Below, piece after piece: positions 8,082-20,611 of a stretch of DNA of 64,000 bases (positions within the stretch are counted from its first letter, which is position 1; the number at the start of each line of letters is the position of its first letter). The notes beneath the pieces were generated by a model. The model was not told the DNA's origin, searched no databases, and saw only the letters and a list, made by a program, of their open reading frames with translations. The DNA comes from a virus: the IMG/VR virus record IMGVR_UViG_3300029822_000001, positions 1 through 64,000 of that record; one strand, given 5' to 3'. The position numbers were made by a program, and so were the translations under genes.

Positions 8082-9519
8082 TTATCTATAAAAGCTTGAC
8101 AGATTTTGTAAAATATTATATAATGTTGTTATGTTATATAGAAGGTTATAAAAATAAACATCGAGAAAATATAAAAACAAATTAGGTGGTGATGAGAATG
8201 TTAACCAGCTATAAAGTTGAAATTAACCCTACAAGTCAGCAAGCGTGGTTAATTGATAGACACATATCAGCTAGTCGTTGGGCATACAACTTGTTTTTAG
8301 ACATTAATAAACAACGCTATGAAGATGGCTATCACTACATGGGTGCATACAAGTTTAGCACGTGGTTTAACCATGACTATTTAGATTTTAACCCAGATGA
8401 TAATTGGATTAAGCAACTGTATGCAAAGTCCACAACGCAAGCTTTCATTGATGCTGACAATGCAATGAAAAGGTTCTTTAAAAAACAGAGTAGATACCCA
8501 CATTTTCGTTCATTTAAGTGCGGACAAGGGTCTTTCTACTTTGTTAAGAACAGCAAGAAGCAGATTATCAAAGTAGAACGTCATCGGATTAAGCTTCCTA
8601 AAATCGGTTGGATACGTTTAAAAGAAAAAGGATATATTCCAACCGATGCTGAACATTTTGTGATTAAACAAGGTCGTGTCAAGAAACATGCAGGTAGATA
8701 CTATCTAACATGCCTAGTAAAGCAAGCTGACATTCAGTTCGCTAAACTTAATGGCGACCCAATTGGAATTGATTTAGGCATTAAAGAATTTGCCATTTTA
8801 AGTAATGGAACTATATTTAGCAACAAAAATAAGAGCAGTCGAGTACGAGGGATGCGAAAACGACTTCGGCGACTGCAAAGAAAGTGGTCTCGTCAGTATC
8901 TTGCATTTAAAGCTAGAAAACAGAAAGAAGGGTCTTCTGCTACTGATTTAAATCTAGCCAAAACCGAGCTGAAAATGCAACGATTGTATCAACGTCTTCA
9001 AAACATACAAGCTGACTATCAGAAGAAGATTATTTCACGGGTGGTGAGAACCAAACCACAGTGGGTAGCTTTGGAAGATTTAAACATCGGTGGTCTGATT
9101 AAGAACAAGAATTTAGCTAAAGCGATTATGCAACAAGGACTTTACACGTTTAGAGAAAAGGTAATAAATAAGTGTCAACAACTTGGGATTCCAGTTCACC
9201 TGGCTAATCGGTTTGAACCCACCTCTAAGCGCTGTCATAATTGTGGAACTAGAAAAGTTAACTTGTCCCTAGCTGATAGAATCTATCATTGTGACGTTTG
9301 TGGTTATACTGAAGACAGAGATATCAATGCGTCTTTAAACATTAGAGATACTGAAAACTTTGAGCTTGCCTACTAAATAGGCTTCAAAGTATGTACCGAT
9401 GGCTAGTCGGGAATTTACGCTTGTGGACTGTTATATCAACTGTACTAGCGAGCTTTTAGCGAGGCAGGACAGGCTGAAACAAGAAAAATCTATAACTTTT
9501 TATAAGTTATCAGTAGCAG
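8072..9519 (+). mobile_element. IS607-family tnpB-only element
   Basis: AT-rich left end, tnpB, right end ...TTATCAGTAGCAG|G, AG at both junctions, imperfectly inverted ends; removal restores a reading frame. Confidence 0.75.
8186..9376 (+). CDS. tnpB: RNA-guided endonuclease TnpB (IS607 type)
   Basis: RuvC motifs IGIDLG / ALEDL / EDRDINAS, CHNC..CDVC zinc finger. Confidence 0.93.
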   Translation: MVMRMLTSYKVEINPTSQQAWLIDRHISASRWAYNLFLDINKQRYEDGYHYMGAYKFSTWFNHDYLDFNPDDNWIKQLYAKSTTQAFIDADNAMKRFFKKQSRYPHFRSFKCGQGSFYFVKNSKKQIIKVERHRIKLPKIGWIRLKEKGYIPTDAEHFVIKQGRVKKHAGRYYLTCLVKQADIQFAKLNGDPIGIDLGIKEFAILSNGTIFSNKNKSSRVRGMRKRLRRLQRKWSRQYLAFKARKQKEGSSATDLNLAKTELKMQRLYQRLQNIQADYQKKIISRVVRTKPQWVALEDLNIGGLIKNKNLAKAIMQQGLYTFREKVINKCQQLGIPVHLANRFEPTSKRCHNCGTRKVNLSLADRIYHCDVCGYTEDRDINASLNIRDTENFELAY

Positions 9520-18253: not shown

Positions 18254-18400
18254 GAAGTAAATATCTTATGTGATTTTTGATGGTTTTGATTGACAAAGTA
18301 GTTCACTAGTGGTACACTGTTTCATGTAGGAGGAAGTAACCTACCAGGTAAACTTGATGATGATTAAGGGGAGTTGGTCACTCCCCCTATACATAATAAT

Positions 18401-18566
18401 GTGGACATTACCCAAGGTTGTTAGGAAAGTCCTTAAAAAAGCGAGGTAAATATACTGAGACCTCTATTAATGTACTATTGTTAACAAGTCTTGTACTTCC
18501 CTTGAAACTCTTGCAAATTTAATAGGGTACGACCCTACTTGTTTGACAAGGGTACAACATCCACCA
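18401..18566 (+). ncRNA. Candidate small RNA with paired ends, terminating in CCA
   Basis: GTGGA/TCCAC and TACCC/GGGTA end-to-end pairing; downstream of a TTGACA promoter near 18291; no ORF. Confidence 0.35.
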
Positions 18567-18759
18567 TGATAGAGATATTAATGCAGCTAAAAATATTCTG
18601 GATACTTCCTTGACAATAGAAAATTAGTGTGGTATACTTATACTGTACCAGAGATTGGTAGTAGTACCAAGTGGTACCTATAAAAATACTAACTAAGAAA
18701 AAGGTTGACAAATAAGTAAAATGTGGTATACTTATTAAGTACTAGAAAGTACCATGTAT

Positions 18760-18911
18760 TGCCTCCAGTAAAATAATCTATTGTGAATATAAACAGGCTT
18801 GTACGATAGGTAAAAAGTGGCGGACGTATATCCTCGCGTGAAGAGATTGTGTGCCTGTTCAAGACTTAGGCAATCCGCAAAGCTACCTCACTTAATTGGT
18901 TACATGGTAGC
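18760..18911 (+). ncRNA. Unidentified pseudoknotted RNA, copy 1
   Basis: Shares TAAACAGG, AAAAAGTGGC, CCTGTTCAAGAC.TAGG and ACTTA.T.GGTTAC blocks plus covarying stems with 20074-20221. Confidence 0.65.
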
Positions 18912-18913
18912 AA

Positions 18914-19030
18914 GAGAAAGTAGCACAAAGGTAGTGCTGTAGGCCGTTGGCCTGTGTAGGTAGTATCTAGTTAGTACATTAGTTGTTAACAGTATAGGTA
19001 CTCATGAGGGTTCGACCCCCTCCTTTCTCT
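18914..19030 (+). tRNA. tRNA-like RNA (GTT/Asn anticodon position) with a roughly 50-nt variable arm
   Basis: Acceptor GAGAAAG/CTTTCTC, D stem GCAC/GTGC, T arm GAGGG-TTCGACC-CCCTC, non-canonical loop CCGTTGG. Confidence 0.6.
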
Positions 19031-19104
19031 ATTTGAGTAAATTGAGTAGGAGTGGTGCAAGTACTTTAATTAACTTATCGTAATCAGCTGGTAAATATGA
19101 AAAG

Positions 19105-19638
19105 GTGGTAAAAAAAATGTCTGATGTTCTTAAATCTAATGTTGAATATAATTATGGTAATTCCATCGAAGCAATGAATCAGATTTTAGCCGATGCGCAT
19201 GTACTTTGGGTTAAAACTCATCAAGCACATTGGTATATGATTAATTCTCGTAATGTGATGTCTGATTTCTTGATTTTACATGATTGGTTAGATAAGCCAC
19301 TTGATTTTCTTATTGATTTAATTGATGATGTTGCCGAAAGAATTGTTATGCTAAATGGTAAACCAGTAGCTACTTTAAAAAACTTTCTTGATTCAACTAC
19401 TCTACAAGAAGAGGATATCGACTACTTTGAGTATAGTTCAGATGAATTATTAAGTAGAACGGTTGCAGACTTCAAAGCATTTAGAGATGAATTATCCAAT
19501 GCCATTAAAATTATGGATAGTGAGGGAAACGTTTCGGATAGTAATAAGCTGCAAGATGATTTAAGTGAGACAAATAAATACATCTGGTTTATGCAGGCAA
19601 CTCTGGGAAGAACAACATTAAACAATAACTTTAACTAG
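19105..19638 (+). CDS. dps: Dps/ferritin-like DNA-protection protein
   Basis: KTHQAHWY, F..LH, D.VAERIV.L.G.P, K.IWF. Confidence 0.9.
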   Translation: MVKKMSDVLKSNVEYNYGNSIEAMNQILADAHVLWVKTHQAHWYMINSRNVMSDFLILHDWLDKPLDFLIDLIDDVAERIVMLNGKPVATLKNFLDSTTLQEEDIDYFEYSSDELLSRTVADFKAFRDELSNAIKIMDSEGNVSDSNKLQDDLSETNKYIWFMQATLGRTTLNNNFN

Positions 19639-19657
19639 TGTACACATATAAAATGTG

Positions 19658-19854
19658 TTGACAAGTTAGTACATTAGTGTTACTATTAAATTGTAATGAA
19701 AACCAAGCTGTCAATAAGTGATACTAAGTTGGCAACATCATGGGCCGGAACGGCCCTTAGTAAATAGCTGTAACCTATGCACGGAGTGCTAGACACTATA
19801 GTGTAAGTAAGTAGCGTTCCTATAAACTCGTTACTTTAGTGACGAGTGTTTCAC
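19658..19854 (+). ncRNA. Stand-alone omega-RNA cassette F abutting tRNA-Gly
   Basis: TTGACA(19658)-N17-TACTAT, GAAAACCAAG leader, scaffold, TTCAC at 19850-19854. Confidence 0.85.
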
Positions 19855-19925
19855 GCGGGTGTGGTGTAGTGGTAACATAGTTGTCTTCCAAACAACTGAC
19901 GCGAGTTCAATTCTCGTTACCCGCT
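19855..19925 (+). tRNA. tRNA-Gly(TCC)
   Basis: Canonical cloverleaf, loop CTTCCAA, T loop TTCAATT. Confidence 0.92.
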
Positions 19926-19999
19926 TGTAGCATAAATACAATAAGGCAAAACGTCGGTGTACTGTTCGCCATTAATGTCCTTTTATGGTACACCATTAT

Positions 20000-20071
20000 A
20001 CTCCTGTAGCTCATCGGTAGAGCGGCCTCCTTATAAGAGGCGGGTAGAATGGTCAGCACATTCCAGGAGTA
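20000..20071 (+). tRNA. tRNA-Ile(TAT)
   Basis: ACTCCTG/CAGGAGT acceptor, GCCTC-CTTATAA-GAGGC anticodon arm, atypical T loop GTCAGCA. Confidence 0.75.
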
Positions 20072-20073
20072 TT

Positions 20074-20221
20074 TCCTCCCATAAATAGGTAGTACTTAGA
20101 TTAAACAGGGTATAAGTACTATAAAAAGTGGCTACCGGGCGTGCTCACGTTAGAAGTATGTGTCCCTGTTCAAGACCTAGGAATGTAGCTATAAGCCGAA
20201 CTTATTGGGTTACTAGGCTTA
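20074..20221 (+). ncRNA. Unidentified pseudoknotted RNA, copy 2
   Basis: Same conserved blocks and stem topology as 18760-18911. Confidence 0.65.
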
Positions 20222-20225
20222 ATTT

Positions 20226-20311
20226 GGAAAGTTAACCATAATTGGTGTTGGAGCGGGTTGCTAACTCGTTGTACCCTCTGGGTATTGCAGGTTCAAGTCC
20301 TGTACTTTCCG
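20226..20311 (+). tRNA. tRNA-Ser(GCT)
   Basis: GGAAAGT/ACTTTCC acceptor, loop TTGCTAA, long variable arm, TTCAAGT T loop. Confidence 0.9.
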
Positions 20312-20422
20312 TATACATAGTACCTAGCTAAGAATAGACAATTTTGTCTATTCTTTTTATTTTGTAAAAAAGTGTTGACTAAGGAGTAAAAAGTGGTAGT
20401 ATTATAAGTATAAGAAAAGGAA

Positions 20423-20611
20423 GTGCTAGACATGAATACTGAAGATATTACAAAAATAGAATTACAAGCTAATCTTAAGATAATTATTAATCAACTTAAT
20501 GATACCTTTGAAGATGTTGACGATGAATGGGTTGCCCGGGGTAAAGTTAAGGATGACCTATTAGCTATTAAGGAATGTGTACAATACCTTAGAACGTTGA
20601 CAGATAAGTAA
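20423..20611 (+). CDS. Hypothetical protein
   Basis: ORF downstream of a TTGACT..TAGTAT promoter. Confidence 0.55.
   Translation: MLDMNTEDITKIELQANLKIIINQLNDTFEDVDDEWVARGKVKDDLLAIKECVQYLRTLTDK

Follow-up and report, generated by a model that had tools for sequence, protein, structure and literature searches.

The window studied here is a stretch of 64,000 nucleotides (nt), positions 1 to 64,000 of the virus record IMGVR_UViG_3300029822_000001. The record holds 122,967 nt of a Lactobacillus phage of the Herelleviridae, whose closest published relatives are the L. brevis or L. plantarum myoviruses 3-521, Semele and Lpa804. In the tRNA array of this phage we identified two divergent copies of an RNA motif of about 150 nt. 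Together with six further copies in related phages, they very probably represent a real, conserved family of structured RNA with three divergent types. On balance we favour the explanation that the motif encodes a stable non-coding RNA. This RNA would be freed during the processing of the tRNAs, would owe its 3' end to RNase P and would act in trans.

The original prediction had placed two copies ahead of tRNAs, and both were found at those sites, with the homology block beginning 1-2 bases earlier than proposed (Table 1). The two copies share 58.7% identity over 150 aligned columns. A covariance model, R1, was built from copy 1 and three 95% identical relatives from Semele, 3-521 and Lpa804 (alignment A3). 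It scored copy 2 with an E-value of 3.8e-11, and the next best match in the window reached 14.6 bits. Because R1 was built without copy 2 and nevertheless finds it, the likeness between the copies is not due to chance. The loop blocks expected to be common to both copies were recovered (TAAACAGG, TAAAAAGTGGC, CCTGTTCAAGAC and GGTTAC). The compensatory stems were present as well: CTATTGTG/TACGATAG against TAGTACTTA/TAAGTACTA in the first hairpin, GCGGA/TCCGC against GCTAC/GTAGC in the closing stem of the domain, and GCTACC/GGTAGC against TAAGCC/GGCTTA in the last hairpin.

When R1 was applied to five further Lactobacillus Herelleviridae genomes, one candidate was obtained, in Levilactobacillus phage ENFP1 (26.5 bits, E 0.006 per genome). 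The ENFP1 copy keeps all helices with different loop sequences, and it ends 3 nt before a tRNA-Thr. The same type was found with blastn in phages 521B (92% identity) and SAC12B (76%), where both copies also end 3 nt before tRNA-Thr. The identity of this third type is 46-49% with copy 1 and 42-46% with copy 2. The covariance search of phage genomes, which had been proposed as a check, did reveal divergent, covarying homologues. With models R2 and R3 the family amounts to eight copies in 7 of the 29 phage records searched, with a conserved block of 152-162 nt. The motif occurs in the genera Watanabevirus, Harbinvirus (Semele and Lpa804, not Iacchus) and Tybeckvirus.

Structure was counted on an eight-row, model-based alignment (A7), which leans towards the nested model because it was fitted to that model. 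Pairing was found in 98.2% of the 226 cells of the four nested helices, compared with 72.4% after shuffling (reached in 0 of 500 shuffles) and 29-49% with slid partners. Changes on both sides were observed in 22 of the 29 nested pairs, and RNAalifold independently predicted the same helices. Of the 38 columns that are invariant among the eight copies, 27 fall outside the nested helices. The covariation shows a predicted fold consisting of P1, a P2 domain with the inner hairpin P2a, and P3.

The first pseudoknot (PK1) joins the loop of P1 to the strand that directly follows P2a on its 3' side. It comprises 7 base pairs (bp) in copies 1 and 2 (AACAGGC/GCCUGUU and AACAGGG/CCCUGUU), which differ by a swap from C-G to G-C, and it reads CCAAG/CUUGG in ENFP1, CCAAU/AUUGG in 521B and CCCAG/UUGGG in SAC12B. 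With registration by hand, five core positions pair in all eight sequences in five versions; by alignment columns the SAC12B pairs are C-G, C-G, C-G, A-U and G-U. The program count, in which the register is off by one for ENFP1 and 521B, gave 91.5% paired against 72.7% after shuffling (0 of 500) and 25-56% with slid partners. The pairing of AACAGG with CCTGTT, originally proposed from two copies, is thus supported by compensatory changes in the third type and by five sequence versions. To judge from this comparison of sequences, PK1 is shown to lock the first two domains together.

The other long-range pairings are less certain. PK2 changes from AAGUG:CACUU to AAGAG:CUCUU in the third type by one flipped pair, has 4 bp in copy 2 and carries a G-A mismatch in 521B, and its length was reached by single-sequence shuffles in most trials. 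The predicted pairing of AAGT with ACTT, which corresponds to PK2, is plausible but weakly supported. The 5' tail (UUGCCU in copy 1, UUUCCU in copy 2) can pair with AGGCAA and AGGAAU, respectively, with one compensatory change; this candidate PK3 is not clearly kept in the third type.

Two ideas on parts of the motif were rejected. The GTTCAAGA block of copies 1 and 2 looks like a T loop, and an origin from a T arm was considered; the block is absent from the third type. A 5' CCUCC might have mimicked an anti-Shine-Dalgarno sequence; 521B and SAC12B carry AUCC at this place.

All eight copies lie in tRNA arrays, on the strand of the tRNAs and directly 5' of a tRNA-shaped gene. The partner is a tRNA-like element in four cases, tRNA-Thr(TGT) in three and tRNA-Ser(GCT) in one. 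The distance from the last helix to base +1 of the tRNA is 2 nt in the copy-1 type, 3-4 nt in copy 2 and 5 nt in the third type. The earlier claim that each copy ends 2-4 nt before a tRNA is therefore right for the spacing and for the tRNA-Ser behind copy 2; the partner of copy 1 is a tRNA-like element, which ARAGORN did not call. This element has a closed 'anticodon' stem with a loop of 3-5 nt, and its variable region carries about 47 nt of inserted sequence. In Semele and Lpa804, the block made up of copy 1 and the tRNA-like element (18758-19029) is conserved with 91-93% identity. The exact starting point of the homology between the window and Semele, 3-521 and Lpa804 is 18758/18759, and with Semele or 3-521 the homology continues through the tRNA-like element. 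Because the homology begins at the first base of the motif and spans the tRNA-like element, the two behave as one inherited module.

The 'anticodon' stem of the tRNA-like element covaries, with GGCC/GGCC against GACC/GGTC (window 18914-19030; locus L005 3157-3273; locus L006 3156-3272). The triplet in its central loop differs in all four phages (GTT, GCA, ACA and TAA), and the acceptor, D and T arms are intact. The element resembles a conserved tRNA mimic whose loop evolves rapidly.

The upstream sides of the copies are more diverse. Copy 1 has a strong promoter-like site upstream at about 20 nt, and a start from it, judged by the consensus match alone, would fall about 20 nt ahead of the copy. 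Copy 2 follows the end of a tRNA with zero spacer and occupies the entire spacer between tRNA-Ile and tRNA-Ser. The Semele and 3-521 copies have a tRNA-Met at about 47 nt, and the third-type copies have an open reading frame (ORF) of unknown family at about 47 nt. A promoter immediately upstream of the Semele-type copy was considered, and the promoter scan called none. The Semele and ENFP1 types share an upstream GGG...CCC hairpin followed by a GATAGC element (L005 2953-3001; L140 2465-2511; also L130 and L141; alignment A10), which is absent from both window copies and might optionally extend the RNA at its 5' end.

Table 1. Features of the tRNA array in the window (PK, pseudoknot; P, helix)
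Feature	Position	Strand	Evidence or remark
Putative sigma-70-type promoter	18705..18732	+	TTGACA, 16-nt spacer, TG-extended TATACT; consensus 11/12
Copy 1 of the RNA motif, 155 nt	18759..18913	+	Covariance models, 177-199 bits
Copy 1 helices	P1 18778-18785/18802-18809; P2 18820-18824/18874-18878; P2a 18825-18835/18843-18853; P3 18882-18887/18906-18911	+	Covariation
Copy 1 PK1	18792-18798 with 18853-18859	+	Covariation
Copy 1 candidate PK2	18815-18819 with 18889-18893	+	
Copy 1 candidate PK3	18759-18764 with AGGCAA 18868-18873	+	
tRNA-like partner of copy 1	18914..19030	+	Acceptor, D and T arms; Rfam tRNA 39.9 bits; no ARAGORN call
Promoter-like site	19658-19686	+	Consensus 10/12
tRNA-Ile(TAT)	20000..20071	+	Rfam 47.5 bits; 3' end abuts first base of copy 2
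Copy 2 of the RNA motif, 152 nt	20072..20223	+	68.1 bits with a model built without copy 2
Copy 2 helices	P1 20090-20098/20113-20121; P2 20131-20135/20185-20189; P3 20192-20197/20216-20221	+	
Copy 2 PK1	20104-20110 with 20164-20170	+	
tRNA-Ser(GCT)	20226..20311 (ARAGORN start 20225)	+	Rfam 42.4 bits; 3-4 nt past last helix of copy 2
Intrinsic-terminator-like hairpin with T run	20330..20355	+	11-pair stem, then T tail

The motif does not belong to a catalogued family. A scan with Rfam 15 (4227 models) gave no match at either copy, neither at gathering scores over the window (five matches elsewhere) nor at E ≤ 10 over 18300-20500 (12 matches elsewhere). Matches of the tRNA model (RF00005) flank the motif and none covers it. 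Hammerhead, twister, twister-sister, pistol, hatchet, HDV-like and glmS models had no match at the motif at E ≤ 10. RAGATH-18 (RF03064) does not match it either, and none of the eight copies follows a tnpB gene. We found no description of the RNA in the literature searched. With the strong covariation over three types, the proposal of a new structured RNA is well supported.

We suggest that the motif, carried in the tRNA arrays of Lactobacillus Herelleviridae phages, encodes a small non-coding RNA with a length of about 150-160 nt. It would be transcribed jointly with the tRNAs, in the window probably from the promoters at 18705 and 19658. The tRNA-Gly, tRNA-Ile and tRNA-Ser genes lie at 19855-20311 (ARAGORN and Rfam), and the terminator-like hairpin behind them closes a unit of promoter (19658), RNA, tRNA-Gly, tRNA-Ile, copy 2 and tRNA-Ser. 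The RNA would be excised by the tRNA-processing enzymes of the host. Its 5' end would come from the transcription start or, for copy 2, from 3' processing of the preceding tRNA. A cut of RNase P at base +1 of the downstream tRNA would form its 3' end, and the tRNA would therefore serve as a processing handle. The released, knotted RNA might be nuclease-resistant and act in trans during infection by binding to a protein or RNA partner. A separate stable RNA is the most likely product because the borders of the motif match processing sites, copy 2 fills its spacer, the tRNA partners are interchangeable, and there are precedents for RNAs from tRNA islands.

Public sequence runs give some hints on transcription and on natural variants. 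Fermentation, compost, landfill and food metagenomes contain the stretch or parts of it. Two oligo-dT RNA libraries from a single study include contigs (636 and 285 nt) that extend over copy 1 and the tRNA-like element of a relative. These contigs are a weak hint of transcription, since they may come from DNA carry-over and give no ends. One DNA run holds copy 2 with one difference. Eight differences were seen inside copy 1 in contigs of relatives, seven at unpaired positions and one in a helix, where G-U became A-U.

Several observations weigh against a freed, trans-acting RNA or reduce the strength of the case. The covariation rests on about five independent sequences in three clades. Single-copy minimum-free-energy (MFE) folds were no more stable than those of shuffled sequences (z -0.83 for copy 1, +0.44 for copy 2), so the evidence for structure is covariation and not energy. 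The family is narrow among the related phage records. The contigs from the RNA libraries span the junction between the motif and the tRNA-like element, which is possible for DNA or for an uncut precursor. The last helix of copy 1 lies just 2 nt from the site of cleavage and could obstruct RNase P instead of exploiting it. P3 of the 521B copy contains a promoter-like site (TTGACG, 17 nt, TATATT; 10/12) that faces tRNA-Thr (L140 2636-2664), and ENFP1 has TTGACG and TATAAT at the matching place. As predicted from its sequence, the 521B site could drive tRNA-Thr on its own; no such site is present in P3 of SAC12B or of the window copies. No protein gene was consistently adjacent to the eight copies, and the neighbouring ORFs had no informative Pfam match. 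The trans-acting role is one that we only infer.

The main rival explanation is that the motif is a cis-acting 5' leader which stays attached to the tRNA and gates RNase P access or tRNA folding, or that the knot and the tRNA shape together are the working molecule. We consider this possible but unlikely. Pseudoknot domains before tRNA-like ends are found in plant RNA viruses, and a knot joined to a tRNA shape can be compared with them. The sole invariant neighbour of the motif is the tRNA, at 2-5 nt, and copy 1 is inherited with its non-decoding partner as one block with shared borders.

A leader could also work as a two-state switch, since the 3' strand of PK1 has a conserved second pairing. 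This local hairpin (columns 103-106/116-119) pairs in 96.8% of cases against 86.4% after shuffling, and 4 of 500 shuffles reached this value. Its duplex energy is 0 to -6.8 kcal/mol, compared with -6.6 to -11.8 kcal/mol for PK1. Outside the copy-1 type it is weak or absent, and its values are negligible in half of the eight sequences (ENFP1 type, 0 to -0.2 kcal/mol; copy 2, -1.8 kcal/mol). Moreover, the differences between copies 1 and 2 at the ends of the hairpin are compensated in PK1 and in the 5'-tail pairing, but not in the hairpin.

Because the motif has three unrelated tRNA types as partners, and one of these cannot decode, there is no apparent tRNA-specific logic in a cis-acting leader, and the context suggests no ligand or sensor. 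Designed riboswitch leaders can control RNase P cleavage in Escherichia coli, according to an excerpt of PMC8925977. The specific claim of a natural 5'-leader device, which gates RNase P maturation through alternative pairings or yields a chimera of knot and tRNA mimic, appears less probable still. Such a chimera could engage a host factor that binds tRNA, for example a tRNA-cutting defence nuclease. If true, the device would be the first known case of a natural structured leader that controls or exploits phage tRNA processing.

It is quite improbable that the motif is a self-cleaving ribozyme of a new class, which would process the tRNA precursor or free itself. The RNA is compact and pseudoknotted, has many invariant positions outside its nested helices and is placed at a processing site, and the phage is rich in mobile-element RNAs, with RAGATH-18 at 9420-9485. 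But no ribozyme class or other Rfam model matches the motif, the RNase P of the host already forms tRNA 5' ends, and no conserved dinucleotide was identified as a candidate for cleavage.

Slightly less probable again is an orphan guide-RNA scaffold, similar to omega-RNA, which would derive from a mobile element and have the tRNA 5' end at the place of the guide. IS605-type TnpB genes are present in the window, and the flanks of the motif differ between phages. However, R1-R3 matched nowhere beside tnpB in the 29 records, RF03064 matches elsewhere and not the motif, and there is no adjacent effector gene in any of the eight cases. RNase P would also cut such a scaffold from its guide.

The least probable explanation is that there is no RNA function at all, only spacer DNA copied within the tRNA array or a decayed tRNA-derived segment: the narrow distribution, the T-loop-like GTTCAAGA block and the unremarkable fold energies would fit it, but 22 of the 29 helix pairs keep pairing through both-side changes at 43-59% overall identity between types, the T-loop-like block is missing from the third type, and the variants of relatives avoid breaking stems.

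Further searches for copies added no members. The 22 records without a credible match were 20 IMG/VR relatives picked by a shared helicase, Lbab1 and Staphylococcus phage K. An exact-block scan of viral contigs returned Lpa804 only. A looser block scan of viral contigs gave at least 119 loci, and R1 and R2 matched none of the 118 that were scored. In a metagenome block scan, also with at least 119 loci, R2 matched none of the 119 listed. A locus with a three-block pattern in a Clostridiales metagenome-assembled genome, from the genome contigs, was rejected as a chance match because it had neither a model match nor a tRNA. A single helicase protein, used as query for related loci, found none. 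The helicase alignment led to 21 loci; the records behind 20 of them lack the motif, and the 21st lies in the Lpa804 record, a known holder. With filters off, R2 found no extra copy in 50 kb of tRNA-array DNA from eight loci, where the best extra match had 14.7 bits. Weak R3 matches outside tRNA arrays were seen in W09 (89592), W06 (82321), W03 (20325) and W02 (69662), with E of 0.03-0.44.

Other features of the region were also recorded. A phage Dps/ferritin-like protein is encoded at 19117-19638, between the motif copies and within the tRNA array (Pfam Ferritin, E 7e-18), and homologues with 52-95% identity occur in metagenome assemblies. A search with the Dps alignment found SAC12B only among viral contigs and nothing in genome contigs. 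The RAGATH-18 match has 52.1 bits and lies directly 3' of an IS605-type TnpB ORF (8186-9376), which carries the Pfam domains OrfB_IS605 and Cas12f1-like TNB. The DNA at 19741-19855, just 5' of tRNA-Gly, is 78-84% identical to unannotated transposase-adjacent DNA in Lactobacillus phages Lb338-1, Lbab1 and CL1. In phage 3-521 an annotated transposase gene (L006 1122-2453) ends 124 nt ahead of tRNA-Thr, which is the tRNA preceded by the motif in Tybeckvirus phages. The slot before tRNA-Thr may hold different RNAs in related phages.

Phage tRNA islands have repeatedly yielded structured RNAs of unknown function, such as GOLLD, ROOL, T4 RNAC and RNAD, and the Kayvirus long non-coding RNAs (lncRNAs). 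At about 150 nt the motif is small enough for chemical probing, crystallography, cryo-EM and clean mutagenesis, and among its carriers are phages in culture whose hosts are known (3-521, 521B, SAC12B, ENFP1, Semele and Lpa804). Its fixed distance of 2-5 nt to the tRNA makes the idea of tRNAs as processing handles for other RNAs directly testable. Copy 1 with its non-decoding tRNA mimic is also a link to the question of phage tRNA clusters and tRNA-targeting host defences.

Some known systems are analogous to the proposed release of the RNA. RNase P makes the 3' end of MALAT1 at a downstream tRNA-like structure, mascRNA, and the 3'ETS-leuZ of E. coli is a functional spacer of a tRNA operon. In both, an RNA beside tRNA shapes is freed by tRNA-processing enzymes and then has a function of its own. 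MALAT1 is a eukaryotic long RNA and 3'ETS-leuZ an unstructured bacterial sponge, whereas the motif is a compact, knotted RNA. The stable small RNAs RNAC and RNAD of phage T4 have their genes in the tRNA cluster of that phage and mature along with the tRNAs.

Other phage RNAs are closer in setting. RNAC and RNAD are called 'RNAs of yet unknown functions' in an excerpt of PMC9697503; they resemble the motif as small phage RNAs of unknown function, a likeness by description only, and differ in host and phage lineage. The structured, pseudoknotted phage and prophage RNAs GOLLD (RF01998) and ROOL (RF03087), also of unknown function, are non-coding RNAs of phages of Lactobacillales and others, and lie 'often near tRNA islands' in the available text of PMC12286853. 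They measure 500-800 nt or more and form multimeric cages, whereas the motif has about 150 nt, is butted to one tRNA 5' end and matches neither model. In Staphylococcus phage vB_SauM-515A1, a member of the Herelleviridae, abundant non-coding RNAs lie beside tRNA genes and lncRNA2 precedes them, as the accessible part of PMC7698491 describes. These Kayvirus RNAs, lncRNA1 and lncRNA2 of vB_SauM-515A1 and phage K, are like the motif tRNA-adjacent, non-coding RNAs of Herelleviridae and are highly transcribed in infection, but they are about 525-570 nt long. Phage K (NC_005880.2) had no match to R2 at E ≤ 10 or to R3 at E ≤ 0.5, with no detectable homology to lncRNA1 or lncRNA2. As far as sequence comparison can tell, the motif is an uncatalogued family of a known functional kind, the structured RNAs of phage tRNA islands.

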